Shown: positions 27,300 to 62,259 of the stretch, piece after piece
How positions within the stretch are numbered: the stretch's first letter is position 1
Layout of the letters: each line of letters starts with the position of its first letter
Sequence record: MN850631.1
From: Escherichia phage mio
Length of the DNA: 64,000 bases
Direction: 5' to 3' (one strand)
Notes under the pieces: model-generated
Told to the model about the DNA's origin: nothing
What the model saw: only the letters and a program-made list of their open reading frames with translations
The model's database searches: none
Position numbers and translations under genes: made by a program

Positions 27300-28199
27300 A
27301 TGTCACAAGCTGATTTGAGTTACAAAAATATCCTGAACCATGTTTTATCCGTTGGTGAACTGCGTACTACACGAACTGGAGATGTTATCTCTGCTTTTGC
27401 TCCACCTCAGTTTCGTTTTGATATGCGAACTGGTTTCCCACTCTTAACATCTAAACAGGTGTTTACACGGCAAGTTATTGGGGAAGCTTTATGGTTCCTG
27501 AATGGTGAGAATAAACTTGGTGAACTCCGTTACCGTACTTGGGATGAAAATGACGGAGAACGCTGGACTATCTGGTCAGATGATTTTAAACGCTGGTTAA
27601 GCTCTAATTATTCTTCTGAACAAGACTGGTTAGATGACGCAGGTGGGAGAATCTACGGGGTTCAGTGGAGAAACTTTGAAGGTCATAATGGTTGTGTTGT
27701 AGACCAGTTAGAGACCTTAGTAACGAAGATGAAGGGTGATATTACAGACCGCTACATGCTTGTTAATGCTTGGAATGCAGCAGATATTGCATCCAACTCG
27801 ATGGCTTTAGCACCTTGTCATGTTCTGTTTCAGATTTATATCACTAACGAAGGTGAAGTTGACTTACAATGGTATCAGCGTTCTGTGGACACCTTTTTAG
27901 GACTTCCGTTTAACATTGCATCCTATGGTTTTATTCTGGAAGTTCTTTGCAAGATGACTGGATACACTCCACGATATTTGATAGGTGTCTTTGGAGATAC
28001 TCAGATTTATCAGAACCATATGAAGCAGGTTTATGAACTGATGAATAATGAAGAGTTTCATGCACCTACTTTTGAGATTGGTGTACCACTTAACACCCTC
28101 AGTGATTTAAAGCATCTTACTGCAAGTGATTTTGTTGGTGGCATTAACAACTACCAACATGCAGGGAAGATTGAAGCACCTTTGTCAGTAGGTAAGTAA
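27300..28199 (+). CDS. thyA: thymidylate synthase
   Basis: 299 aa; active-site region ALAPCHVLFQ and QRSVDTFLGLPFNIASY. Confidence 0.85.
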   Translation: MSQADLSYKNILNHVLSVGELRTTRTGDVISAFAPPQFRFDMRTGFPLLTSKQVFTRQVIGEALWFLNGENKLGELRYRTWDENDGERWTIWSDDFKRWLSSNYSSEQDWLDDAGGRIYGVQWRNFEGHNGCVVDQLETLVTKMKGDITDRYMLVNAWNAADIASNSMALAPCHVLFQIYITNEGEVDLQWYQRSVDTFLGLPFNIASYGFILEVLCKMTGYTPRYLIGVFGDTQIYQNHMKQVYELMNNEEFHAPTFEIGVPLNTLSDLKHLTASDFVGGINNYQHAGKIEAPLSVGK

Positions 28200-28201
28200 A
28201 A

Positions 28202-28238
28202 ACAAAAAAAGGCTCCTTTTTACGGGAGCCTTAAAATT
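28202..28238. terminator. bidirectional rho-independent terminator between convergent genes
   Basis: 8-bp stem AAGGCTCC (28209-28216) / GGAGCCTT (28225-28232), flanked by A-run on the left and TTTT on the right. Confidence 0.6.
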
Positions 28239-28610
28239 TTATTTTTCAGTATTCTTTGTGTTCTTCTCAGTAATAGCTTGGAGGGCTGATACTGATTGAG
28301 CCAGATTGTTCACACTGTCAGAGAATTTATCAAGAGTTTTCGTCAGTTTTGCATTCTCACCCTTAACATTCTCTAACTGAACTTTCTGGTTCTCCATCCC
28401 TAACTGAATAAGTCTCATGTCAGACTGTAAATCACGAATAGCTGAATAGTTACTACTTGTGTAATTATCTAGCTGCTGTAACTTTGTTTTGACAGACACT
28501 TCTTGCTTACCACTTGAAACTTGCATAGTGGTATACATCCCAATAACACTAAAAATACCAACAACAATTGCACCAATATTATTTTTAAAAGCTTCCTCTA
28601 GCCACTTCAT
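28239..28610 (-). CDS. membrane-anchored coiled-coil protein
   Basis: 123 aa; N-terminal TM (IGAIVVGIFSVIGMY) then coiled-coil. Confidence 0.4.
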   Translation of the reverse strand: MKWLEEAFKNNIGAIVVGIFSVIGMYTTMQVSSGKQEVSVKTKLQQLDNYTSSNYSAIRDLQSDMRLIQLGMENQKVQLENVKGENAKLTKTLDKFSDSVNNLAQSVSALQAITEKNTKNTEK

Positions 28611-28805
28611 TTATTTCTCCCCCTTAAAAGCTTTTTCTAAGTTATCTACGAACTCATCATCAATAGGTGTGTCTGTCTTACCCGCAAGGTATCTTGCAAG
28701 CTTAAAGAACACTTTCTCAATCATGTATTCACTCAGAAGGGATAAAATGAGTTTCCAGAAGAAGCTACCTAGATTTTTTAGAAGAATTGCTAGGATTGTA
28801 GGCAT
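28611..28805 (-). CDS. hypothetical protein
   Basis: 64-aa ORF. Confidence 0.3.
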   Translation of the reverse strand: MPTILAILLKNLGSFFWKLILSLLSEYMIEKVFFKLARYLAGKTDTPIDDEFVDNLEKAFKGEK

Positions 28806-28884
28806 TTAATCACCTCATCAGCCAAGATGGTGAGAATACCCATAGAGAATATTAACACCATCTTAACAATCAGTCAACAAGGGA

Positions 28885-31233
28885 TTAAGCAGTTCTCACC
28901 CAAGCCATTAACTTATAGAACTGGTTAGTTACACTAAATGCTGAACCAGAACCTGTACTTCCAGTGTTACCACTCACTGTATGGCTGTGAGCACCAATAC
29001 CAACACTGTGAGCATGGTTACCATTTGATGCAGCAGTACCACTTACTGAGTGTGAGTGATTCCCAGCACTACCCGTTTGTACGGTATTCCTGTTACCATC
29101 AGAATCCCAATCACCCCTTGTACCACTTGGTTGCGCACCAGTAGTATAACCATGTGTATGGGCACCTGTTGTGTTCGTTGAACCACTCACTGAGTGGGTG
29201 TGAGCACCAGTAGTGTTAGTGGTTTTTGTTCCGTAGTCAAAAGATGAAGTAGTAGCAGAAAAACTGTGTGTGTGTGATGGTAAGTTACCAACAGCTAACG
29301 TCACAGAATCTGAACCACCAGTTGTAGCAACATCTGAACCATTTGCTGCTGCAATTCTGATAGTTCTACCAACACCATTATTCAGGTACGTCCAAGTTAG
29401 ACCAGGCAGTGCTGTATTAGGGTTAACATTACTGTTAAACCACGTTACAATACCTACTGGATAGATTTTATTAAGGTCTGTAGAGTCACTTACTGCCTGT
29501 GCAATCTTCTGGTCAGTCTCAGTTTTAGTGTATGCACCGATGTCTGAAGGGGATGGTTTATCTTGGTCTGTATAGATTTTAGCCCAAGTATTCTCAAATC
29601 CATACCCATCTCTCGCTGACCTATACCAAAAACCACCATTCCTATAGTTAAATTTTAATTGAGCAGATGGTGTAGAGCTACCACCCTGATACATATGGTA
29701 GACTAGTTGTGTTGAACCACCAGATTCCCCTGTAACATTATACAGACCAGTTCTAGCAGTCCAAGCGATACCATCACCATCACCTACCTCTGTACCAGTG
29801 CCAGAAGAGTAAGCAAACATATACCTAGAGTTTGCGTCAGATTTCGTATAATATCTAGCATCTAAGTTAGACCAATCTGAAGGTTGAACCTGTCCAGTGA
29901 TTGCTAAAGTTGCATTCATTTCAAATGCTGAACCGATGGTAAGACCTTTACCTGTTTTGTAGTTAAACAGCCTTAAGTTGTTATTGTTATCAGCATCACC
30001 ATTACCAACATACCACTTAGCTGTCCCATCAGCAGATAACCCTCTAATGAACAATGTCGTTGCAGTTTTTGCTTTTAACGCAAGAGCTTCACCATCAGAG
30101 TTGATAACTTGTCGTACAGAAAATGTATTGACAACATTAGTTCTTGCAATCGTACTTAATGTTGCTGCCGGAATATATCTAGAGTCAATGTTAGTCCAAT
30201 CTGAAGGTTGAACTTGACCAGTTACAGTTAGTGTTTTATTGATATTAACACTTGTCCCTACAGTAATTTTGCCACCAGTTTTGTAGTTTTCTAGAGCTAC
30301 GTTATCACCTTCATTACTATTACCAATGTACCATCTGTTGACACCTGCGCTATCAATCGCTTTAATGTACAATGGCTGTGCAGCATTGGCATTCTGTAGC
30401 CTAATTGCCTCACCATCTTTTTTGAAAATACTTAGTTGGTTAAACGTGTTAGTGCCAGTGAAATTATTATTAGCAGCTAACTGTGCAAATCTCTGATTAG
30501 CTACTGTCTGAGTAAAGTATCTAGCATCTAAGTTGGAGAAGTCAGAAGGTTGAACTTGACCAGTAATAGCAAGGGTTTTATTAATAGCAACACTTGTGCC
30601 TAGAGTAATGGTTGAACCTTGTTCACTCTCAATTTGAACATCTCGGCTGCCTTTAATTAGGTTCCCGATAGCCCAAACTTTTTCACTACTAGCATCCCTA
30701 GCTACAACAGCAGTGTATGCCTCACTAGCACTTGCAGGGTTTCTTAGTGTTAGAATCTCCCCATTTGCTGTAATAGTCTGCTTGACGTTAAACGTGTTTG
30801 AGTTAGCCAACCTTGCATACCTTGCATCATTCTCTTCATTAGTTCTCATCCCAAGTTCATTAGGGCTTGGCTTATTCAAAGTATGGTAAACAGTTGCTGA
30901 CCTTGAAGCATCTGCAATAGTTAGTTTAAGGCCATTTGCGTTGATTTTAAAAGCCTTTAAAACATCCCCCATAGTAATCTCAGAAGAGCCTGTAGGGTCA
31001 AACACTGCCTTACCACCATAAAGTAACTTGACAATTCCTAAGTCACCAGTCATAGTGCTGCCAGCAATCTGAACAAATCTTTCAAGCTTAAAAGATGCTA
31101 AGAAGTCTTGATAGGTCATTCGACGGTCTTCATCACCCAGCATTTCAGGTCTCTTTTTAACTCTGACATGGAGAAGGTCGTCTGAACGAATTGTGTCGAT
31201 TGAGTTTAACTGACTCAATTTGTAATCTGCCAT
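28885..31233 (-). CDS. tail fibre protein with triplicated internal domain and His-rich tip
   Basis: 782 aa; three copies of ...TGQVQPSD(F/W)(S/T)N(L/I)D(A/S)RY...; C-terminal HxH-rich segment (HTHSVSG, HSHSVSG, HAHSVG) shared with the neighbouring fibre. Confidence 0.7.
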   Translation of the reverse strand: MADYKLSQLNSIDTIRSDDLLHVRVKKRPEMLGDEDRRMTYQDFLASFKLERFVQIAGSTMTGDLGIVKLLYGGKAVFDPTGSSEITMGDVLKAFKINANGLKLTIADASRSATVYHTLNKPSPNELGMRTNEENDARYARLANSNTFNVKQTITANGEILTLRNPASASEAYTAVVARDASSEKVWAIGNLIKGSRDVQIESEQGSTITLGTSVAINKTLAITGQVQPSDFSNLDARYFTQTVANQRFAQLAANNNFTGTNTFNQLSIFKKDGEAIRLQNANAAQPLYIKAIDSAGVNRWYIGNSNEGDNVALENYKTGGKITVGTSVNINKTLTVTGQVQPSDWTNIDSRYIPAATLSTIARTNVVNTFSVRQVINSDGEALALKAKTATTLFIRGLSADGTAKWYVGNGDADNNNNLRLFNYKTGKGLTIGSAFEMNATLAITGQVQPSDWSNLDARYYTKSDANSRYMFAYSSGTGTEVGDGDGIAWTARTGLYNVTGESGGSTQLVYHMYQGGSSTPSAQLKFNYRNGGFWYRSARDGYGFENTWAKIYTDQDKPSPSDIGAYTKTETDQKIAQAVSDSTDLNKIYPVGIVTWFNSNVNPNTALPGLTWTYLNNGVGRTIRIAAANGSDVATTGGSDSVTLAVGNLPSHTHSFSATTSSFDYGTKTTNTTGAHTHSVSGSTNTTGAHTHGYTTGAQPSGTRGDWDSDGNRNTVQTGSAGNHSHSVSGTAASNGNHAHSVGIGAHSHTVSGNTGSTGSGSAFSVTNQFYKLMAWVRTA
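29008..29243. repeat. tail-fibre tip repeat, copy 1 (about 90% identical to 31463-31697)
   Basis: Long runs of identical nucleotides shared with the second fibre gene. Confidence 0.7.
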
Positions 31234-31279
31234 TATAAGTTTTCCTCTTAAAAGGGGCTATAAAGCCCCTGTAAAGAAA

Positions 31280-32446
31280 TTAAGCTGTTCTCTGCCATAC
31301 ATACAGAACAAAGGATGGTTGTTCAACACTGAATGCTTGTCCAGAACCTGTAGAACCAGTTGTACCAGAATGTGAGTGCTCTGTTGTTGAAATACTCACA
31401 CTACCACTGTGAGTGTGTGAACCAATATTAGTTACATGGGTGTGTGAACCAATATTTAAAGTGTGAGCATGGTTACCATTTGATGCAGCAGTACCACTTA
31501 CTGAGTGTGAGTGATTCCCAGCACTATCCGTTTGTACGGTATTTCTGTGACCATCTCTGTCCCAATCTCCAGATGCACCTGTTGATTGATAACCAGTAAT
31601 ATAACCATGCGTATGAGCACCAGTAGTGTTCGTTGAGCCACTCACTGAGTGGGTGTGAGCACCAGTAGTGTTAGTGGTTTTAGTTCCGTAGTCAAAGCTA
31701 GAGGTTGTCTTAGTCCCATAATCAAAGGAACTAATAGACATTGTTGCTCCATGTGTGTGACCACCACCAGTGACGTATACTGAGTGAGTATGTGCAGGGA
31801 TGTTGTTAACTGTCAGTGCAGTAGTTTGCGAACCAAACGTTGAACCAACTGGCCTAGAAGCACTATCATAACCCACGAGTGCTCTTCCTTTTGAAACTAA
31901 CTCCCAAGTACCTCCACAAATTAAATATGTAGAGGGGTTTGCAGGATTCATAGAGAGATGGATAGTACCTACTGGATAAGAAGCCTGAACAGCCTTGTAC
32001 AAGTTATTTACTGCTCTTGCTGTAGCGTACTTATCTGCATCTTCATTATAAAGATTAGATGTTGTCCAGTTCTGGACATTACTCAAACCAACCTGTGCTT
32101 TAGTTGTATTGTGTGGGTTACTCTTATCATTAATATGTTGTTGAACAAGGTTATTAACCTCTTCTGAAGACATAATCTGTAGATTTGCTCTTGCCTCAGC
32201 TACATTAGTAACGTCTGATAAGTTGTTTTCAGCAACTAACTGGAGAGCATTAATAACATTATCTAAACCAATTTGTGTCTTAGTAACACCATGAGGGTTA
32301 TTTCTCAGGCTTGAGTGTGGAGCAAGTAGTTGCTCAAGAGTGCATCTCTTATCCTCAATACCCTGCTTAAGATGGAAGATATCACTAAGGTCAATTGGTA
32401 AGGCTGCTTGAGGCAAGGCACTAATTTGAATTTCACCTACTGCCAT
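31280..32446 (-). CDS. tail fibre protein 2 (shares C-terminal His-rich tip with 28885..31233)
   Basis: 388 aa; C-terminal TTGAHTHSVSGSTNTTGAHTHGY...NHSHSVSGTAASNGNHAH nearly identical to fibre 1. Confidence 0.65.
   Translation of the reverse strand: MAVGEIQISALPQAALPIDLSDIFHLKQGIEDKRCTLEQLLAPHSSLRNNPHGVTKTQIGLDNVINALQLVAENNLSDVTNVAEARANLQIMSSEEVNNLVQQHINDKSNPHNTTKAQVGLSNVQNWTTSNLYNEDADKYATARAVNNLYKAVQASYPVGTIHLSMNPANPSTYLICGGTWELVSKGRALVGYDSASRPVGSTFGSQTTALTVNNIPAHTHSVYVTGGGHTHGATMSISSFDYGTKTTSSFDYGTKTTNTTGAHTHSVSGSTNTTGAHTHGYITGYQSTGASGDWDRDGHRNTVQTDSAGNHSHSVSGTAASNGNHAHTLNIGSHTHVTNIGSHTHSGSVSISTTEHSHSGTTGSTGSGQAFSVEQPSFVLYVWQRTA
31463..31697. repeat. tail-fibre tip repeat, copy 2
   Basis: See copy 1 at 29008-29243. 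Confidence 0.7.
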
Positions 32447-32448
32447 TA

Positions 32449-40467
<8,019 letters not shown>

Positions 40468-52168: not shown

Positions 52169-52244
52169 TGGAGAATCCGAAGGGACTCGAACCCTTATAA
52201 ACCTGTTTTGCAGACAGGCACATATCCATTTCTGTCACGGATTC
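52169..52244 (-). tRNA. tRNA-Cys (anticodon GCA)
   Basis: 76 nt, hand-folded cloverleaf; acceptor GAATCCG/CGGATTC, anticodon loop CTGCAAA, T-arm GGGTTCGAGTCCC, encoded CCA. Confidence 0.7.
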
Positions 52245-52248
52245 AAAT

Positions 52249-52341
52249 TGGAGGAAGATACCAGACTTGAACTGGTACACCGATTTCTCAGCTACTGGCA
52301 GTTTAGCAAACTGCTCCCTTACCTTTTAGGGTTAATCTTCC
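52249..52341 (-). tRNA. tRNA-Ser (anticodon GCU), type II
   Basis: 93 nt; acceptor GGAAGAT/ATCTTCC, anticodon loop TTGCTAA, long variable arm, encoded CCA. Confidence 0.6.
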
Positions 52342-52342
52342 A

Positions 52343-53077
52343 TTATTTCTGTAATGCGCTCTTCATTTCTGGTGTTGCAATAGTATCAATCACACCAGTT
52401 TTACAAGCATCATCAAACCAGTCTGGTAAGATACCTGCTAAGAACCCATTGATATTCGTTTTAAGGTACTCTGCAATAAGGGCAGCTTCTTCTTCAATCA
52501 TCTGCACAACTTCATCTGCATAAGCTGTAATCTTTGAGATACCTTCATTAATCTTACTAACAGCCTGATTAGCTAAATCAGAAACAGTATCAAGACCCTT
52601 ATCAATAGCGTCTTGTAAGTCACTTAACACACCATTAACACTATCTAGTGTGCTGTTAATCATGTCAATAGCTTTTTGACCATATTCTGTAGCAACACCC
52701 ATAATACCACTGAATGGTGTACAACCAACTTGTTCTCCTGCTGCACCCATAACATTGGAATAACCCTTTGCTACCTGCATACGTGATGAAAACTCATCAA
52801 TAGATTTTTGACCATAGTCTGTTAGGGTCTTAGTAGTTGCTGTAGTGCTTGTCAGACTTGTTGTAAAGCTGTTTAGAAGGACTGTTGTAAGTCCAGCAGC
52901 AACAAGTTTCTCCTGCATTGTAGGGTCTGTTACAGAGCTAATAGAGCTTACAAGTGATGTAGAGGCAGCTACGGTTCCACCGAGAACTGCTGCACCAGTA
53001 ATAAGTGGGTTAGAAAACCCTTTACCGGTTTTTAAGAGATTAAAAATCTCCTTACCTTGTTCTGTCATCTCTTTCAT
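52343..53077 (-). CDS. hypothetical protein embedded in the tRNA array
   Basis: ORF 52343..53140 trimmed to internal ATG 53077 because the upstream part overlaps tRNA-Phe; Thr/Ser/Ala-rich. Confidence 0.35.
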   Translation of the reverse strand: MKEMTEQGKEIFNLLKTGKGFSNPLITGAAVLGGTVAASTSLVSSISSVTDPTMQEKLVAAGLTTVLLNSFTTSLTSTTATTKTLTDYGQKSIDEFSSRMQVAKGYSNVMGAAGEQVGCTPFSGIMGVATEYGQKAIDMINSTLDSVNGVLSDLQDAIDKGLDTVSDLANQAVSKINEGISKITAYADEVVQMIEEEAALIAEYLKTNINGFLAGILPDWFDDACKTGVIDTIATPEMKSALQK

Positions 53078-53093
53078 TAAGCACCTTTGAAAT

Positions 53094-53169
53094 TGGTAGT
53101 CCAGTGGGATTTGAACCCTCTTCTCATGTTTTTCAGACACGCGCTTTAACCATATAAGCTACTTGGACT
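53094..53169 (-). tRNA. tRNA-Phe (anticodon GAA)
   Basis: 76 nt; anticodon stem CGTGT/ACATG, loop CTGAAAA; T-loop GGTTCAAATCC; CCA encoded. Confidence 0.6.
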
Positions 53170-53175
53170 ATAAAT

Positions 53176-53251
53176 TGGGGTGACCTACGGGAGTCGAACC
53201 CGTATAGACCATGTTCACAGCATGGGTCATTGCCATTTATGATAAGGCCAC
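53176..53251 (-). tRNA. tRNA-His (anticodon GUG)
   Basis: 76 nt; anticodon stem CCATG/CATGG, loop CTGTGAA; T-loop GGTTCGACTCC; CCA encoded. Confidence 0.7.
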
Positions 53252-53282
53252 ATTTAAGGACTCTCGTAAGAACCCTTAGAAG

Positions 53283-53358
53283 TGGCAGCGGCATAAGGAT
53301 TTGAACCTTAATAGGACAGCTTCAGAGACTGCTGCATTGCCAGTTATGCTATACCGCT
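53283..53358 (-). tRNA. tRNA-Gln (anticodon CUG)
   Basis: 76 nt; D-stem GCAT/ATGC, anticodon loop CTCTGAA, T-stem TAAGG/CCTTA; CCA encoded. Confidence 0.55.
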
Positions 53359-53363
53359 AAATT

Positions 53364-53434
53364 TGGTACTCCATATCGGATTCGAACCGATACATAACAC
53401 AGATTTTAAGTCTGGCCTCTCTGCCAATTGGAGT
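53364..53434 (-). tRNA. tRNA, anticodon UAA (Leu-type anticodon on a short class-I scaffold)
   Basis: 71 nt; T-arm ATCGG-TTCGAAT-CCGAT, anticodon loop CTTAAAA, no long variable arm, A at discriminator; atypical. Confidence 0.4.
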
Positions 53435-53444
53435 AATGGAGCAT

Positions 53445-53519
53445 TGGCGGGGGATGTTGGAATTGAACCAACTTCTTCGATTTCAAAGACCGAGGTTTTA
53501 ACCTTGTAAACTAATCCCC
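53445..53519 (-). tRNA. tRNA-Gln (anticodon UUG)
   Basis: 75 nt; anticodon stem TCGGT/ATCGA, loop CTTTGAA; T-arm GTTGG-TTCAATT-CCAAC; acceptor has two mismatches. Confidence 0.5.
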
Positions 53520-53528
53520 TTTAAATCT

Positions 53529-54086
53529 TTACTTTCTCAGTGGATGAATAAAGAATGCCAACATAACTCTTTCCCTTGAGAATGCTCTTTCTTCTGGGAC
53601 AACACTTTTTAGTTTCCATCCAACATAAATTCTCCAGTAAAACTGTTTACCAAAGACTTTAATTGATGGGATAAAAGCGAATAATCCCCAAGCATTACTG
53701 TTCCACATTAGGAGATAACCAGTCTGATTATCTTCAGGGTCAGAACTTACGTTGATATTACCTTTCCACTTAGTAACATCTTTTACATCTCTTCCTAACA
53801 CATGGTAAGAGAAGTTATAAGCTTTGTTTCTCCAGAGCCATCCAACTCTCTGCAAATAGACACCCAGCTTACCAATCTTTCTAATCTTAGCCCATCTTTT
53901 AACGTGGCCTTCGTCACCATCAATCGGGTTGTCGTAGGTTTCCATCCATCTGAATCCAAAAGGTAGGTGTCCTTTCTTCTCACTGTAGAATGGAACTACG
54001 AAAGGTGCTAAGATGACTGCTAGGGTTGCTGCAAATGGCTCTAGTAAAGCTAGGAAAATCCATGAAGCATACTTCAAATATCTCAT
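53529..54086 (-). CDS. hypothetical membrane protein embedded in the tRNA array
   Basis: 185 aa; N-terminal hydrophobic segment WIFLALLEPFAATLAVILAPFVVPF, Trp/Lys/Arg-rich remainder. Confidence 0.35.
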   Translation of the reverse strand: MRYLKYASWIFLALLEPFAATLAVILAPFVVPFYSEKKGHLPFGFRWMETYDNPIDGDEGHVKRWAKIRKIGKLGVYLQRVGWLWRNKAYNFSYHVLGRDVKDVTKWKGNINVSSDPEDNQTGYLLMWNSNAWGLFAFIPSIKVFGKQFYWRIYVGWKLKSVVPEERAFSRERVMLAFFIHPLRK

Positions 54087-54105
54087 CTAAATAGCCTCTT
54101 AAAAT

Positions 54106-54183
54106 TGGTGTTCCAAGACGGATTCGAACCGTCACTAATACAAGGTTTGAGCTTGCATCCTCTGCCAATTGGGATACTGGAAC
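54106..54183 (-). tRNA. tRNA, anticodon CAA (Leu-type anticodon on class-I scaffold)
   Basis: 78 nt; T-arm GACGG-TTCGAAT-CCGTC, anticodon loop CTCAAAC with extended stem; short variable region; atypical. Confidence 0.4.
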
Positions 54184-54184
54184 A

Positions 54185-54259
54185 TGGTACTCACTAAAGG
54201 ACTTGAACCTTTTTCTTCATCTTGTAAGGGTGATGTTTTACCATATAAACTAAGCGAGT
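54185..54259 (-). tRNA. tRNA-Val (anticodon UAC)
   Basis: 75 nt; D-stem GTTT/AAAC, anticodon loop CTTACAA, T-arm AAAGG-TTCAAGT-CCTTT; CCA encoded. Confidence 0.65.
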
Positions 54260-54354
54260 GTGAAAGAGGTCTGAAGTTGTGCCGCTAACTCAACTCCGTG
54301 GAATTTGTTACGGTCTTCAGTTGACACAAGCGGTCTTTCACTTGACCTCTGAAT

Positions 54355-54431
54355 TGGTGCTGCTCACAGGACTCGAACCTGCATTTCCATCCTTACAAGG
54401 GATGTGTAATAGCCAATTATACGAAAGCAGC
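54355..54431 (-). tRNA. tRNA-Thr (anticodon UGU)
   Basis: 77 nt; anticodon stem CATCC/GGATG, loop CTTGTAA; T-loop GGTTCGAGTCC; CCA encoded. Confidence 0.65.
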
Positions 54432-54438
54432 ATTAATT

Positions 54439-54513
54439 TGGAGCATCCAGAGGGAATCGAACCCTCAACCTCAGTTTGGAAGACTGTAATTTTCCCGTTT
54501 AAACTATGGATGC
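54439..54513 (-). tRNA. tRNA-Gly (anticodon UCC)
   Basis: 75 nt; anticodon stem CAGT/ACTG, loop CTTCCAA; T-arm GAGGG-TTCGATT-CCCTC; CCA encoded. Confidence 0.65.
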
Positions 54514-54519
54514 ACTAAT

Positions 54520-54595
54520 TGGTGGAGAAGCAGGGAATTGAACCCTGTACTTAAGTTTGCAAAACTTATGTTTTAACCATGTAAACTACATCCCC
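54520..54595 (-). tRNA. tRNA-Ala (anticodon UGC)
   Basis: 76 nt; anticodon loop TTTGCAA; G3-U70 wobble in acceptor stem (classic Ala identity element); CCA encoded. Confidence 0.65.
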
Positions 54596-54601
54596 GATAT
54601 C

Positions 54602-54677
54602 TGGTACAGGTGGAGGGAATTGAACCCATCGTCTTACTGATTAAGAGTCAGCCGCATAACCATTTTGCTACACCTGC
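54602..54677 (-). tRNA. tRNA-Lys (anticodon CUU)
   Basis: 76 nt; anticodon loop CTCTTAA; near-duplicate scaffold of the UUU Lys tRNA at 56281-56356; CCA encoded. Confidence 0.55.
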
Positions 54678-54684
54678 ATTAATT

Positions 54685-54762
54685 TGGTAGGAGACAAGGG
54701 ATTCGAACCCTCAAACATCTCGTTCTAAGCGAGATAGGTTTACCAATTACCATCAATCTCCC
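54685..54762 (-). tRNA. tRNA, anticodon UAG (Leu-type anticodon on class-I scaffold)
   Basis: 78 nt; anticodon stem TCTCG/CGAGA, loop CTTAGAA; T-loop GGTTCGAATCC; atypical D region. Confidence 0.4.
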
Positions 54763-54843
54763 ATTAAATCTTTTTAGAGAACTTCTAAGAACCTAAGCAA
54801 CAAGGTTCCACAACAAGCTGTAATAACCTTAGAAGCCCTCTAA

Positions 54844-54864
54844 AAAGACCTAAAAAAGGTCTTT
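54844..54864 (-). terminator. terminator-like hairpin inside the tRNA array
   Basis: AAGACC-(T)6A-GGTCTT hairpin; U-run follows on the minus strand; weak. Confidence 0.3.
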
Positions 54865-55018
54865 GCATAGTCTTGTTTAATCCGGTGACTAGAACCTTTG
54901 GAGAGCTTGATATTATCTCTTCTCCGTGACACCTACTAGGTGCTTTATTAGTGTGTACGACAACACACGAGGGATACCAAAGCAACATCCTAATGAAGCT
55001 TGGCTTTAAATCTTATTA

Positions 55019-55108
55019 GGCGGTAAGTAAAGGAGTCGAACCCTCACCGTATCTCTACAGTGGCAACAGTTTTCAAGACTGTTTGGCTGCCATTAGCCGC
55101 TACCTACC
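55019..55108 (-). tRNA. tRNA-Ser (anticodon UGA), type II
   Basis: About 88 nt; anticodon stem ACAGT/ACTGT, loop CTTGAAA; long variable arm; 3' CCA not encoded (CCT). Confidence 0.55.
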
Positions 55109-55121
55109 CCTAATAAGACTT

Positions 55122-55204
55122 TGGCATGGGACGGAGGAGTTGAACCCCTTTGAAACGGTTTTGGAGGCCGTTGCTCATGCCTTAGAGTCTTAACATCGTC
55201 CCAC
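55122..55204 (-). tRNA. tRNA-Trp-like (anticodon CCA), atypical 83 nt
   Basis: Acceptor GTGGGAC/GTCCCAT, anticodon loop CTCCAAA, T-loop GGGTTCAACTCC; enlarged D region. Confidence 0.4.
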
Positions 55205-55341
55205 ACTATAATTCGAAGCTTACCGTATTATCTCAACACTGTAAAGCCCCTTCTCAGATTATTTACATGTTCTGGAAAACATGAGATACAGACCACCTCC
55301 CTACAGGAAGACCCGCTTAGGTCGTCTAAGTAATCTGCTAA

Positions 55342-55689
55342 CTAATACTTTGCATGTCTTACCCTATGGCAATTTGAACATAGCAAAACACATTTGTCAA
55401 GTTCATCTTTTAGCTCTTGAGAGAACTTAAGGCTTTTCCTATGACCAATGTTAAAATCTTTATCTGAAGGATTCAAATGATGGAAGTCATACACTGCTGG
55501 ATGATACTTTTTACCACAATCATGACAAACCCCACCTTTGTACTCAATAGCTGAGAGTTTAAGTGCTCTTTGTCTTTCTATGGTTTGCTCATTAACACAC
55601 TTTTTACAGTATGAATGAGTTCTTCTACCATCTTTCATGTAGAAATCATTTTCATCCTTGCTAAGTTTGCACCTAATACAAGTTTTCAT
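55342..55689 (-). CDS. HNH homing endonuclease
   Basis: ORF 55342..55740 trimmed to ATG 55689 (upstream part overlaps a tRNA); CxxC ... HHLNP ... CSNCHRVRH HNH/zinc motif. Confidence 0.6.
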   Translation of the reverse strand: MKTCIRCKLSKDENDFYMKDGRRTHSYCKKCVNEQTIERQRALKLSAIEYKGGVCHDCGKKYHPAVYDFHHLNPSDKDFNIGHRKSLKFSQELKDELDKCVLLCSNCHRVRHAKY

Positions 55690-55703
55690 GATTTCTCCAA
55701 AAT

Positions 55704-55785
55704 TGGTCGAGGCGGCAGGACTCGAACCCGCATACTCCACTTACTCGGTTAACGGCGGTTTAGAAGACCGCTGAGATACGCCCCG
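55704..55785 (-). tRNA. tRNA-Arg-like (anticodon-type loop CTTCTAA = UCU), structurally anomalous
   Basis: 82 nt; T-arm GCGGG-TTCGAGT-CCTGC and acceptor CGGGGCG/CGCCTCG, but the UCU hairpin sits where the D-arm should be, followed by 23 unassigned nt. Confidence 0.35.
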
Positions 55786-56078
55786 TAATTATCTTTAAAG
55801 ACTCTCTTAGAAAGCCCTTAAAGATGCCCACCTTATTAATCATACCGTGGGCTAGTACGCCAAATTCTTTGATGAGGGATTGGAAGACCTCACTGGTGTT
55901 TAGCCTATCAAGCTACTGCCAGAAAAACATTGTCGTTTGCATTTATTTTAAATTTGCAAAATAGACGCTACGCAACGAAAACTATTCAGAATATGTACAA
56001 CAAATTTCCCCACATTGTGTTACGTCTAACGCTCATGTATTGGTGTTTGAATTATACATATTATGAAGTATTTTAGTT

Positions 56079-56107
56079 ACTATAAAGTGGTCACATCTCA
56101 ATGTCAA
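56079..56107 (-). promoter_or_regulatory. sigma70-like promoter driving minus-strand transcription into the tRNA array
   Basis: Minus-strand TTGACA (rc of 56102-56107), 17-nt spacer, TATAGT (rc of 56079-56084). Confidence 0.5.
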
Positions 56108-56122
56108 CAACTTTATTGAAAT

Positions 56123-56198
56123 TGGTACTGGTAGGTGGAATCGAACCACCGATATTCCCTTATCAGGGGAGTGTTATAACCTTCTTAACTATACCAGC
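56123..56198 (-). tRNA. tRNA-Ile (anticodon GAU)
   Basis: 76 nt; anticodon loop CTGATAA, T-arm GGTGG-TTCGATT-CCACC; CCA encoded. Confidence 0.65.
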
Positions 56199-56199
56199 T

Positions 56200-56276
56200 T
56201 GGAGGTTCAGATGGGAATCGAACCCACATTCATAGGGCTTATGAAACCCCTGCATTACCTTATCTGCGACTGAACC
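56200..56276 (-). tRNA. tRNA-Met (anticodon CAU; three G-C pairs in anticodon stem, initiator-like)
   Basis: 77 nt; anticodon stem GGGGT/GCCCT with loop TTCATAA; T-loop GGGTTCGATTCCC; CCA encoded. Confidence 0.55.
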
Positions 56277-56280
56277 ATAT

Positions 56281-56356
56281 TGGTAGAAGTGGAGGGATTC
56301 GAACCCATCGCCTGTCAGATTAAAAGTCTGCCGCATCACCATTCTGCTACACTTCC
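56281..56356 (-). tRNA. tRNA-Lys (anticodon UUU)
   Basis: 76 nt; anticodon loop CTTTTAA; scaffold nearly identical to the CUU Lys tRNA at 54602-54677. Confidence 0.6.
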
Positions 56357-56361
56357 ATTAA

Positions 56362-56504
56362 ATTATCTTTGTAGATAAGCTACCCAGACTTGCTTAAGGT
56401 CTGTAGCGATGTGCATTGTTGGGTTTAAATCTAGAATTTACCCTTTCACCCTTTGTGGTCGCATACTCACAGGTAAGCTTAATAACTTATCTACAAAGAT
56501 AATT
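56362..56504 (-). ncRNA. structured element with 19-bp perfect terminal inverted repeat (candidate ncRNA or mobile-element remnant)
   Basis: AATTATCTTTGTAGATAAG (56362-56380) and its exact reverse complement CTTATCTACAAAGATAATT (56486-56504) enclose about 105 nt with internal hairpins; no T-loop; strand unknown. Confidence 0.35.
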
Positions 56505-56505
56505 A

Positions 56506-56636
56506 CCAGACCGTTGTTTATCATCTTAAGTGCTACCATTACACCAACTCGACCTCTGCCGAGTGAAGGAATCGAACCTTCGCCTTTTCTTTACCGAGAA
56601 ATAGATTGTTTAAGCTTTGCTGTAAACGGTCTTCTG
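56506..56636 (-). ncRNA. circularly permuted tRNA-like element (candidate Y-RNA-like ncRNA or permuted tRNA gene)
   Basis: In minus-strand sense: variable-arm hairpin TTTCT-CGGTA-AGAAA, T-arm GAAGG-TTCGATT-CCTTC, acceptor-like hairpin ACTCGGC-AGAG-GTCGAGT, D-arm-like GTG-TAATGGTAG-CAC, then TTAAGAT pairing back to ATCT and an 8-bp outer helix AGACCGTT/AACGGTCT. Confidence 0.45.
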
Positions 56637-56810
56637 TAAATTTGTTGAGCCAGACCAAGTTTTAAATTTTTCAAAATTAAATTGGCTTGAAATTTTAAGT
56701 AACTTGCTGTATTTGGTCTTCTGCTCCTTTAAAGAATACTCGTAAGAACTCTTTAAGGGAGGGGCTAAATAGCCCTCTCAAAACATCATTTTGAAATACT
56801 TATTATAATT

Positions 56811-56888
56811 TGGCGGTTACGAAGGGACTCGAACCCTCATCATCTCCCGTGACAGGGGAGTATTTTAACCATATTAAACTACATAACC
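56811..56888 (-). tRNA. tRNA-Asp (anticodon GUC)
   Basis: 78 nt; anticodon stem CTCCC/GGGAG, loop CTGTCAC; T-loop GGGTTCGAGTCCC; CCA encoded. Confidence 0.65.
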
Positions 56889-56894
56889 TTCATT

Positions 56895-56982
56895 TGGTGT
56901 GCCGTGTAGGAGTCGAACCTACCGAGTCTCAATGACAAGGGATTTACAGTCCCCACCGCTACCATCTACGGGATAACGACAC
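56895..56982 (-). tRNA. tRNA-Tyr (anticodon GUA), type II
   Basis: 88 nt; anticodon loop CTGTAAA, long variable arm, T-arm GTAGG-TTCGACT-CCTAC; CCA encoded. Confidence 0.6.
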
Positions 56983-56991
56983 ATTTAAATT

Positions 56992-57068
56992 TGGCGGTTA
57001 GTCAGGGATTCGAACCCTGTGCCATTCGCTTAACAGGCGACCGCACATACCTTATGTGCTTCCTAACC
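56992..57068 (-). tRNA. tRNA-Asn (anticodon GUU)
   Basis: 77 nt; D-stem GCAC/GTGC, anticodon loop CTGTTAA, T-loop GGGTTCGAATCCC; CCA encoded. Confidence 0.65.
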
Positions 57069-57145
57069 TTAATACATTGCCAGACCGTGTTTTTTCTTTT
57101 ATCCGCAAAAAGTAGTTTGTTGCTGCATACAGTCTTCTGCAAAAT

Positions 57146-57222
57146 TGGAGGCGGGTGCAGGAGTCGAACCTGCCGATACCATGCTAATGAGACATGTGAG
57201 ACGCCCTTTCTCTATACCCGCA
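57146..57222 (-). tRNA. tRNA with CAU anticodon (Met or Ile2-type)
   Basis: 77 nt; anticodon stem CATGT/GCATG, loop CTCATTA; 1:72 mismatch in acceptor; T-arm GCAGG-TTCGACT-CCTGC. Confidence 0.5.
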
Positions 57223-57313
57223 ATTCTTAATGACCAGACCAAATCTCTTCTTTGTCCGATTTACCTTCAGATGAATAAGATTAAGTTTGCTGTAATTGGT
57301 CTTCTGTCAAAAC

Positions 57314-57391
57314 TGGCGTTCCAGAAGGGATTTGAACCCTCAGATATCCACTTTGAAAGAGTGGTGACTTTACCATTTTGTCTACTGGAAC
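57314..57391 (-). tRNA. tRNA-Glu (anticodon UUC)
   Basis: 78 nt; anticodon stem CCACT/AGTGG, loop CTTTCAA; T-loop GGGTTCAAATCCC; CCA encoded. Confidence 0.65.
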
Positions 57392-57398
57392 ATTAATT

Positions 57399-57476
57399 TG
57401 GTCTCTGTTGGAGGACTTGAACCTCCGGCCTTACCGCCCCAAACGGAACGCTCTACCAAGCTGAGCTAAACAGAGA
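57399..57476 (-). tRNA. tRNA-Pro (anticodon UGG)
   Basis: About 78 nt; canonical D-arm AGCTCAGCTTGGTAGAGC, anticodon loop TTTGGGG, T-arm GGAGG-TTCAAGT-CCTCC; CCA encoded. Confidence 0.7.
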
Positions 57477-60910: not shown

Positions 60911-61795
60911 ATGATTAAAGCAAAGACTTACCCAGACTTCAAAGAGTTTGTGAAGGGCTTCATTGCAAACGTAAAAGCTGGTAAGAGATATGATTTTAGA
61001 ACATATCAAGAGGCTATTTTACCACTCACCTATAGTTCGTATTGGCCTGAAGCTGATATTGCAGAAGTTGAGGAGTTTGACTACAAACCAGACTACAAAG
61101 TTCCATTTAGTGATGATTTGCTTTACAGCGTTGGTGCTCAAATGAGAACTTCTGACTTCTTCATGGACTTACAATATGCAATTATCAATGGTAAAGACGT
61201 TGACACAGTGTATTGTGAATGGTTGGCAAGAGTTAAGCCGTTCTCAATGTTGAATGCTAAGCTGAAGGATGCTATTAAGCCACCAGCAATTACTCAGCAA
61301 CCAACAGGCCAAACAGTCAATGAGGGTGGCACACTTACTTTAAGTGTTCTAGCAACTAACGCCACTGGATATCAGTGGAAGAAGGATGGTGAGGACATCC
61401 ACAGTGCCACTTCTGCAACTTACACAAAACAATCCGTAGCACCTTCTGACGCTGGTTCATACACTTGTGTTGTATCTGGAGAGGGTGGAACAAGTGTCAC
61501 CTCAGATGCAGCAACGGTTACTGTTAACGCACTGCCTGTGATTACACAGCAACCTTCTAGCCAGACCATTAATGAAGGTGGAAACATCAGTCTATCAGTG
61601 ACTGCAACAGGTGCAACAGGTTATCAGTGGAAGAAGGGTGAAGAAGTCATCCCAGACGCAACTGCTGCAACTTACACCAAAGAAGGTGCAACCGCTGCTG
61701 ATGCAGGAAGCTACACCTGTGTAGTGACTGGCGCAGGTGGCTCTGTAACATCTAATGCGGCAACAGTTACAGTTAACCCAGCAGAGGAGGCATAA
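60911..61795 (+). CDS. protein with two tandem Ig-like (Big/I-set-type) domains
   Basis: 294 aa; two about 90-aa repeats ITQQP(T/S)(G/S)QT(V/I)NEGG...ATGYQWKK...A(T/S)YTK...DAGSYTCVV...AATVTVN. Confidence 0.45.
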   Translation: MIKAKTYPDFKEFVKGFIANVKAGKRYDFRTYQEAILPLTYSSYWPEADIAEVEEFDYKPDYKVPFSDDLLYSVGAQMRTSDFFMDLQYAIINGKDVDTVYCEWLARVKPFSMLNAKLKDAIKPPAITQQPTGQTVNEGGTLTLSVLATNATGYQWKKDGEDIHSATSATYTKQSVAPSDAGSYTCVVSGEGGTSVTSDAATVTVNALPVITQQPSSQTINEGGNISLSVTATGATGYQWKKGEEVIPDATAATYTKEGATAADAGSYTCVVTGAGGSVTSNAATVTVNPAEEA

Positions 61796-62259
61796 TGCAA
61801 CTCTCAAGAAAAGGTTTAGAAGCTATTAAGTTCTTTGAAGGTCTTAAGCTGGAGGCTTACGAAGATTCTGCCGGAATCCCAACAATCGGGTATGGTACAA
61901 TCCGTATTGACGGGAAACCTGTTAAGATGGGTATGAAAATCACGGCTGAACAAGCTGAACAGTATCTTCTCGCAGATATTGAAAAGTTCGTTGCAGCAGT
62001 GAACAAATCCATCAAGGTTCCAACTTCTCAGAACGAGTTTGATGCACTTGTAAGTGAAACATACAACATTGGCATCACAGCTATGCAGGATTCTACATTT
62101 ATCAAGCGACATAATGCTGGTGACAAGGTAGGTTGTGCAGAAGCTATGCAGTGGTGGAACAAGGTTACAGTCAAAGGTAAGAAGGTCACTTCAAACGGCC
62201 TGAAAAACAGACGTAGAATGGAAGCTGACATTTATCTTGACAGTGTATATCCAAAGTAA
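61795..62259 (+). CDS. endolysin, T4-lysozyme-like (GH24) muramidase
   Basis: 154 aa; N-terminal LEAIKFFEGLKLEAYEDSAGIPTIGYGT matching the catalytic E...D...T region of phage lysozymes. Confidence 0.65.
   Translation: MQLSRKGLEAIKFFEGLKLEAYEDSAGIPTIGYGTIRIDGKPVKMGMKITAEQAEQYLLADIEKFVAAVNKSIKVPTSQNEFDALVSETYNIGITAMQDSTFIKRHNAGDKVGCAEAMQWWNKVTVKGKKVTSNGLKNRRRMEADIYLDSVYPK

Follow-up and report, generated by a model that had tools for sequence, protein, structure and literature searches.

The two adjacent tail-fibre genes of Escherichia phage mio, which encode a short tail fibre (STF) and a long tail fibre (LTF), share a nearly identical stretch of DNA that specifies the distal needle and the head of both fibre tips. 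We consider it likely that this needle-head stretch is a cassette swapped between phages and, in addition, between the two fibre genes of phage mio itself. All coordinates given here are positions in the 64,000-nucleotide (nt) stretch of this phage that was analysed (MN850631.1), hereafter the window. A previous sequence-only reading of the window had called attention to a near-identical, His-rich stretch in both genes, and had proposed that it might be a recombination cassette for host-range switching. The shared stretch is real and, as judged from sequence comparisons, the cassette idea is supported as evolutionary shuffling, by discrete head types, by breakpoints in needle DNA and by copying between STF and LTF, rather than as a programmed switch.

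The shared stretch is a direct repeat of 261 nt, which aligns codon by codon without gaps and is identical at 228 of 261 positions (87.4%, E 4e-88), with a longest perfect run of 65 nt. Over the 234 nt between 29008 and 29241, compared with the stretch shifted by 2455 nt, identity amounts to 89.3%, which agrees with the approximately 235 bp at about 90% initially noticed; the motifs quoted at that time are present as AHTHSVSG, NHSHSVSG and NHAHSVG. Comparison of the window with itself, both by repeat search and by self-BLAST, returned no second repeat matching this one in length and identity. The location originally given, namely, the 3' ends of both genes, holds only in that the repeat lies near them, but it ends 96 nt (LTF, 32 codons) and 156 nt (STF, 52 codons) before the stop codons, and the extreme C-termini of STF and LTF are fibre-specific. 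Similarly, the upstream parts had been described as different, and indeed the N-terminal parts of LTF and STF are unrelated in sequence, and the collar part of their alignment shows no similarity in DNA; the collar domains are, however, homologous in protein, with 50% identity between LTF residues 591–782 and STF residues 157–388 (BLASTP, E 1e-54).

The blocks of the repeat were set by mapping it onto an alignment with T4 gp37, and block identities were counted from a 30-nt listing (Table 1). All two-copy figures for phage mio were taken in the ungapped register; a MAFFT protein alignment puts gaps wrongly in the STF–LTF head, and the own-paralog sliding values of 0.36–0.47 obtained there are too low. 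Between the two copies, dN is 0 in the needles, and in the descending needle dS is 0 as well. The heads, variant A1 on the STF and variant A2 on the LTF, differ at 9 of 30 residues, their codons having accumulated 14 non-synonymous and 5 synonymous differences (dN/dS of about 0.85), and three of the differing codons are changed at all three positions.

The likeness to the HxH repeats of T4-type fibre tips, which had been suggested from the motifs, reflects true homology. In phmmer searches of the PDB, the T4 gp37 tip (2XGF) was matched by LTF residues 652–762, with an E-value of 1.3e-13, and by STF residues 146–355 over residues 18–223 of 2XGF, with an E-value of 8.8e-25, both alignments being collinear from the collar through the needle. 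The LTF has six HxH motifs, at residues 654, 678 and 692 before the head, and at residues 726, 740 and 749 after it; the STF has nine, at residues 219, 230, 264 and 278 before the head, and at residues 312, 326, 335, 344 and 357 after it. In both fibres, HxH blocks are found on both sides of a short head, as for a chain that runs out and back. In T4 gp37, the receptor-contacting residues come after H929-x-H931, and iron coordination in the needle is critical for folding (PMC6957217). Mapped onto the gp37 alignment, the shared stretch takes up the distal, receptor-proximal end of both fibres, and the mio heads correspond to the receptor-contacting tip of T4 gp37.

This architecture agrees with the 2025 cryo-electron microscopy (cryo-EM) study of the related phage Bas63, whose STF (gp26) and LTF (gp27) each end in a gp37-like tip, in which a collar is followed by a six-stranded HxH needle and by a small head where the chain folds back; the tip trimers were described from cryo-EM together with AlphaFold 3 models, and both fibre tips were found to be highly variable across the genus Felixounavirus (PMC12609058). 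The similarity of both fibre C-termini to gp37 had been noted in the Felix O1 genome paper (PMC3185647). By analogy with these tips, those of phage mio would be trimers, in which each HxH motif may bind one metal ion.

We compared both fibre genes of 34 Felixounavirus genomes, namely, 28 IMG/VR loci, five genomes from GenBank and phage mio. Among the 31–33 distinct tips in this sample, mean pairwise nt identity was 0.32–0.41 at the head versus 0.8–0.9 at the collar and the C-terminus, in both fibres. Genus-wide identity is lowest at the head, so that the repeat of mio falls on the stretch that is least conserved in both genes. When head types were defined as the protein-level module between FDYGTK and IGAH, 19 types were found in the 34 genomes. 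The comparison of fibre loci among relatives, which the sequence-only reading had advised, located mosaic boundaries inside the repeat. BLAST segments shared with relatives end, for the STF, at the 5' edge of the repeat and about 55 nt past its 3' edge and, for the LTF, 35–78 nt and 182–236 nt into the repeat; breakpoints among relatives sit in conserved needle DNA.

Individual phages tell the same story at higher resolution. First, the STF of phage A132 is 88–100% identical to that of mio over its whole length (60-nt windows), and its LTF differs in the shaft and, within the tip, in only one block of about 100 nt. This block is also replaced in JLBYU28, and its base-level ends in both phages are the TNTTG-xHxH and SAGNHSH boxes. 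Second, the LTF head of phage JH2 is 98–100% identical to that of mio, its STF tip only 52–85%. Third, the nearest relatives of the mio LTF tip in the phage database are HK3 and JH2 (94%), and that of the mio STF tip is A132 (96%), with HK3 and JH2 reaching only about 75%; the combination of STF and LTF tips seen in mio is present in no deposited phage. The fibre locus is a patchwork.

These observations also bear on the possibility, raised together with the cassette proposal, that the shared stretch is a conserved assembly or intramolecular-chaperone domain without mosaicism among relatives. Neither fibre has a Pfam match to a Peptidase_S74-type chaperone domain and, given that the extreme C-termini are fibre-specific, this argues that the shared stretch is no chaperone or assembly domain. 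Furthermore, it is the least conserved stretch of both genes, breakpoints lie inside it and, of 29 genomes scanned in DNA, none beyond 6 gave an STF–LTF match of 195 nt or more.

Exchange between the two fibre genes is evident at both protein and DNA level. Only two of the head types, A and B, were found on both STF and LTF. Type A (GYxTGxQ...GDWDxDGxRNTVQT) occupies both fibres in mio, JH2 and HK3, and only the STF in A132 and JLBYU28; type B (GGRYGGDSIGGK...) occupies both fibres in Felix O1, UAB_Phi87, SP116, L016 and Si3, and only the STF in L009. The same head type is thus carried twice by 8 of the 34 genomes, compared with 1.3 expected under random pairing (p = 5e-5). A scan for STF–LTF matches in DNA, which covered 29 genomes (the 28 IMG/VR loci and phage mio), detected matches of 195–270 nt, at 76–91% identity, only in mio, L004 (UAB_Phi87), L007 (SP116), L016 and L026 (Si3). 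The match in L009 spans 56 nt, and those in the other scanned genomes are of about 100 nt at most, the longer ones being 68–76% identical.

Two similar tips in one genome could also go back to an old duplication without recent recombination, with purifying selection on a metal-binding scaffold preserving the likeness. This would account for needles that have no amino acid differences between copies, and HxH needles are indeed structurally constrained, as illustrated by the iron coordination that is critical for folding in T4 (PMC6957217). However, identity between the mio copies extends to synonymous sites, as seen in the 65-nt perfect run and in the dS of 0 of the descending needle; no STF–LTF match of at least 195 nt turned up outside 6 of the 29 scanned genomes; and the site patterns are mosaic. 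Moreover, dS between the STF and LTF modules of mio is 0.24, versus a saturated value of 1.8 between the orthologous STFs of mio and JH2, the STF–LTF value within JH2 being 1.08. We consider this explanation quite improbable.

In agreement with exchange, the mio STF module has 87.5% identity with the LTF of the same phage and with that of JH2, but only 80% with the orthologous STF of JH2. In sliding windows, its needle flanks are 98–100% identical to the LTFs of several genomes, and its head apex is of STF type. At sites fixed between the groups, the mio STF is successively LTF-like (6 of 6), STF-like (9 of 10) and LTF-like (8 of 10), a mosaic for which a two-breakpoint permutation test gave p = 0.005; a single-breakpoint model fitted poorly (p = 0.02) and the two-breakpoint model was used. 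In UAB_Phi87, the STF module agrees over nt 93–196 with the LTF of that phage at 8 of 8 informative sites, with flanks that are STF-like at 33 of 34, and six variants, one of them synonymous, are common to its STF and LTF and found in no other genome (p ≤ 0.0005). The latter is the pattern that gene conversion within a single genome leaves behind. The STF apex of SP116, in turn, resembles the LTF of L016. Copying between STF and LTF genes has taken place both in the mio lineage and in UAB_Phi87.

Heads also travel beyond the genus. The LTF tip at L003:11340-11660 is 100% identical, over the 321-nt query, to that of Escherichia phage vB_EcoM_AYO145A, and with T4 gene 37 it shares 87.8% DNA identity across 287 nt, a level which points to recent exchange between two unrelated phage families. 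We also observed that the LTF tip of AYO145A, and that of L019, carries the T4 gp37 head (GEHSHYIEAWNGTG...). The type B head was found in 86 records, 80 of them from Salmonella phages, and most Felixounavirus records have two copies of it; among Salmonella phages, it extends to T4-like ones of 170 kb and, with identity falling to 62%, to P2-like ones. The type A head was found only in four E. coli-type Felixounavirus records and in phiNP (OR565852), a 45-kb temperate phage of Citrobacter rodentium, where it belongs to a 283-residue tail collar fibre protein (L034:1931-2779). A search with the A2 head of 185,579 representative bacterial genomes yielded nothing beyond remote HxH repeats, and thus no prophage with a close copy. 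Head type tracks host and not phage lineage, and because of this we infer that the head sets receptor specificity and, with it, host range. Felixounaviruses are known to depend on lipopolysaccharide (PMC8594841, PMC8300805).

The phiNP head and the A2 head of the mio LTF agree at 28 of 30 residues with only 73% identity in DNA, so that A1 and A2 are both alleles of long standing that have been conserved. This speaks to an alternative history in which one head was copied from the STF to the LTF, and the LTF copy then diverged fast under positive selection. Such a history would fit the head dN/dS of about 0.85, given a dN of 0 in the needles, and the fact that STFs carry type A heads more widely than LTFs do, and with greater divergence. 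It is nevertheless unlikely, as A2 is nearly unchanged in phiNP and as three of the differing codons are changed at all three positions. Fast adaptive divergence after a single STF-to-LTF copy was dropped on the ground of the age and conservation of A2 seen in phiNP; the mio heads are better read as two different apex alleles between needle flanks that have been homogenised.

Two further explanations remain to be weighed. Assembly error, in the form of a chimeric or collapsed contig, we regard as excluded, since other genomes bear out each copy independently: the STF module of A132 is 97% identical, the LTF modules of JH2 and HK3 are 95–96% identical, and both mio genes are intact open reading frames (ORFs) of lengths typical of the genus. 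The other one takes literally the idea of host-range switching. A receptor-binding tip that is present twice in a fibre locus, at a distance of 2.4 kb, might form part of a programmed switch, be it an invertible or shufflable segment, such as Mu G or P1 C, or a diversity-generating retroelement (DGR). However, the copies are direct and not inverted, the longest inverted pair between 26000 and 34000 being of 30 nt at 70% identity, and a reciprocal crossover between direct repeats would remove most of the LTF gene. The neighbours are baseplate, holin-like and thymidylate synthase genes, with no recombinase among them, and Pfam and PHROGs revealed no reverse transcriptase among these neighbouring genes, to which that search was confined. 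Finally, the 33 mismatches show no adenine bias, with A in the LTF at 7 of them and in the STF at 11. Direct repeats and the lack of an invertase or DGR signature point to evolutionary shuffling, so that in its programmed sense the term switch does not apply to this locus; we regard such a device as highly improbable.

The cassette that we favour may work as follows. The chain of each fibre tip would leave the collar, run up a trimeric HxH metal needle, form the receptor-contacting head and run back down. The hypervariable head is bracketed by conserved needle DNA, namely, the FDYGTK and GxHxH boxes, whose similarity would be sufficient for recombination between homologous stretches, and crossovers in these boxes would move heads between co-infecting phages, other families included. 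Needle and head DNA would also move between the STF and LTF genes, by ectopic exchange or by non-reciprocal gene conversion, the outcome in phage mio being near-identical distal needles with head A1 on the STF and head A2 on the LTF. Most likely, the exchange proceeds by homologous recombination in conserved needle DNA, during replication or co-infection. Between copies in direct orientation, reciprocal crossing over inside a single genome would join the N-terminus of the STF to the C-terminus of the LTF, with loss of most of the LTF, and productive routes would be limited to non-reciprocal conversion or to exchange between genomes.

A more specific version of this scheme, which we put forward only tentatively, is that the fibre genes of Felixounavirus serve as a two-slot store of heads, with repeated slot-to-slot copying by gene conversion at shared needle DNA. 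If so, a head suited to a new host could soon be present on STF and LTF alike, or a diverged variant could be retained in one of the slots, and this would be a specific, selected mechanism, undescribed for Felixounavirus or for T4-type tips.

Several considerations count against the swapped cassette. First, the receptor, the host range and the recombination of phage mio were all approached from sequence, and what is said of them is to be taken as prediction. Second, the sample of 34 genomes holds close relatives, so that the excess of genomes with the same head type twice represents few independent events. Third, the mosaic of the mio STF is based on 26 informative sites. Fourth, since A1 and A2 are distinct and each of them is old, the two fibres need not share a receptor. 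Fifth, the exchange could have occurred within one genome or between co-infecting genomes, as sequence fixes neither its place nor its direction.

Megablast with positions 28000–33700 retrieved 256 phage records, mostly at 90–95% identity and nearly all of them from Felixounavirus phages of Escherichia, Salmonella and Shigella; phage mio is a Felix O1-like phage (Felixounavirus). The identification of both genes as tail-fibre genes is confirmed by Pfam, PHROGs and synteny, which match them to the STF and LTF of this genus. The LTF has the Pfam domains gp37_trimer (three times), gp37_C and Phage_fiber, corresponds over its full length to phrog_4277 and, in a PDB search, its residues 468–578 align to the Mu fibre 8JU3; the STF has Gp10_C and Phage_fiber, and corresponds to phrog_2097. 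The features of the locus are listed in Table 1.

Table 1. Features of the phage mio tail-fibre locus, in window coordinates. Repeat and tip features are listed first, followed by the LTF shaft, the fibre genes and their neighbours.
Feature	Position	Strand	Evidence or remark
Repeat copy in LTF, aa 665-751, distal needle and head	28981..29241	-	Repeat search, self-BLAST
Repeat copy in STF, aa 251-337, distal needle and head	31436..31696	-	Repeat search, self-BLAST
LTF ascending needle, 30 codons, FDYGTKTTNTTGAHTHSVSGSTNTTGAHTH, two HxH boxes	29152..29241	-	93.3% identical to STF 31607-31696, no aa difference
LTF head, 30 aa, GYTTGAQPSGTRGDWDSDGNRNTVQTGSAG, variant A2	29062..29151	-	78.9% identical to STF head
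STF head, 30 aa, GYITGYQSTGASGDWDRDGHRNTVQTDSAG, variant A1	31517..31606	-	
LTF descending needle, 18 codons, NHSHSVSGTAASNGNHAH, two HxH boxes	29008..29061	-	100% identical to STF 31463-31516
LTF block of about 100 nt, replaced in A132 and JLBYU28	29064..29163	-	Flanks about 90% or more identical
LTF collar and needle base, aa 591-664	29242..29463	-	Conserved across the LTFs of Felixounavirus
STF collar and proximal needle, aa 157-250	31697..31978	-	One FDYGTK unit and one HxH box more than LTF
LTF shaft, three 92-nt direct repeats, 70-78% identical, spacing 324 and 342 nt	29852..30609	-	Match the three gp37_trimer units
LTF gene, 782 aa	28885..31233	-	ORF; counterpart of Felix O1 gp77, Bas63 gp27
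STF gene, 388 aa	31280..32446	-	ORF; counterpart of Felix O1 gp76, Bas63 gp26
100-aa protein, LTF platform by position (Bas63 gp25)	32449..32751	-	phrog_4141; synteny with PMC12609058
Baseplate wedge 1, 285 aa, DUF2612	32751..33608	-	Pfam, PHROGs, synteny with PMC12609058
Baseplate wedge 2, 489 aa, Baseplate_J	33611..35080	-	Pfam, PHROGs, synteny with PMC12609058
Two small genes 3' of LTF, 64 aa and 123 aa	28239..28805	-	Second is holin by annotation in relatives

The gene order, namely, wedge 2, wedge 1, the 100-residue platform protein, STF, LTF, two small genes, td and frd, is the same in HK3, JH2, JLBYU28 and Felix O1, and an STF of 375–402 residues followed by an LTF of 777–871 residues was found in 34 of 34 genomes, the LTF of L020 and L026 being made of two ORFs. 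In these two loci (L020:9382-11752 and L026:9380-11723, the latter apparently Salmonella phage Si3) the split reflects a frameshift or a sequencing error, and the Si3 LTF was flagged as incomplete in the Bas63 paper (PMC12609058). No tail-fibre chaperone family was matched, in Pfam or PHROGs, by the two small genes downstream or by the 100-residue gene upstream. In the shaft of the mio LTF (29852-30609), identity to A132 and JH2 is mostly 20–60% in 60-nt windows, and this strong divergence makes it a second mosaic zone in the LTF gene. Within the repeat, the plus strand (28938-29144) has an antisense ORF of 68 residues, rich in His, Tyr and Gln, which is most likely a by-product of reverse-complemented HxH codons and no gene.

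Other observations concern the records used and the rest of the window. The records of Campylobacter phages A132 and A126 (MG065664 and MG065668) and of Staphylococcus phage SA1 (GU169904) contain Felixounavirus DNA, about 88–93% identical to the locus; the A132 record is flagged UNVERIFIED and that of SA1 is of 147 kb, and the host labels of these three records are probably wrong, or else their assemblies mixed. Elsewhere in the window, a protein of 294 residues (60911-61795), encoded just upstream of a lysozyme-like gene (61795-62259), has two tandem Ig-like domains encoded by a 243-nt tandem duplication (61289-61531 and 61541-61780, 69.5% identical). This is probably a Hoc-like capsid decoration protein, and the number of Ig domains of the Hoc-like protein differs across Felixounavirus (PMC12609058). 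The minus strand of positions 52169–57475 bears a cluster of 24 tRNA genes, one of which is an apparently intact tRNA-His(GTG); the His tRNA of Felix O1 is listed as a pseudogene in its genome paper (PMC3185647). An 86-nt repeat in this cluster (53358-53444 and 54100-54185) corresponds to two tRNA-Leu genes.

Typing of Salmonella, biocontrol and therapy all make use of Felix O1-like phages, and how these phages recognise their receptors is still poorly defined. A mapped cassette of about 100–260 nt, with defined junctions and discrete types, which tracks the host genus and fits either fibre, provides a practical recipe for the prediction and engineering of host range by head swaps at the needle boxes, in which the STF needs to be considered alongside the LTF. 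It also carries the T-even model, with its recombination at conserved motifs, over to a second phage subfamily, and adds to it exchange between the two fibre genes of one virion.

When compared with known systems, part of this picture is not new. That both tips are gp37-like and variable is already known from the 2025 cryo-EM work (PMC12609058), and the mio case is a real but largely expected instance of tail-fibre shuffling, in line with the T-even model, in which conserved motifs are the sites of exchange. In the literature searched, we found no description of a genome whose two tips are near-identical in DNA, nor of gene conversion between STF and LTF, nor a catalogue of discrete heads common to T4-like, P2-like and Citrobacter phages; thus, copying between the two fibre genes appears to be previously undescribed. 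Bas63 and Felix O1 share with mio the gene order, as well as a gp37-like collar-needle-head tip with HxH motifs in both fibres, the tips having been reported to vary more than any other part across the genus, but Bas63 has six (LTF) and seven (STF) HxH motifs compared with six and nine in mio, and neither of the two papers (PMC12609058, PMC3185647) reports near-identical tip DNA, STF–LTF copying or head types that cross families.

T4 gp37 shares with the mio tips a homologous fold and motifs, including a variable adhesin segment between conserved GxHxH-encoding DNA, where the junctions lie. In T4, however, there is one gp37-type tip per virion, and the short fibre gp12 is unlike it, whereas mio has two fibre genes with such tips, which exchange DNA with each other; also in contrast with T-even phages, the mio-type locus has no gp38-like gene next to the fibres. 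Tetart et al. (1996, 1998) reportedly found that recombination between conserved motifs of the T-even distal fibre locus swaps adhesin specificity, and that a broader host range results from duplications between the His boxes of gene 37. Likewise, tail-fibre tips are said to have been transferred among P2-, Mu-, P1- and lambda-like phages (Haggard-Ljungquist et al., 1992). Comparable to such transfers, type B is shared with P2-like Salmonella phages and A2 with phiNP. The difference is that those tips usually move together with a Tfa chaperone gene; the fibre gene of phiNP is followed by a tail fibre assembly gene, whereas the Felixounavirus locus has no adjacent one. Finally, Mu G, P1 C and DGRs resemble the mio locus in that a second copy of the tip sequence serves as the means of tip change, but they differ from it in their inverted repeats, adjacent invertase or reverse transcriptase and adenine-directed mismatches, features which the mio locus does not share.

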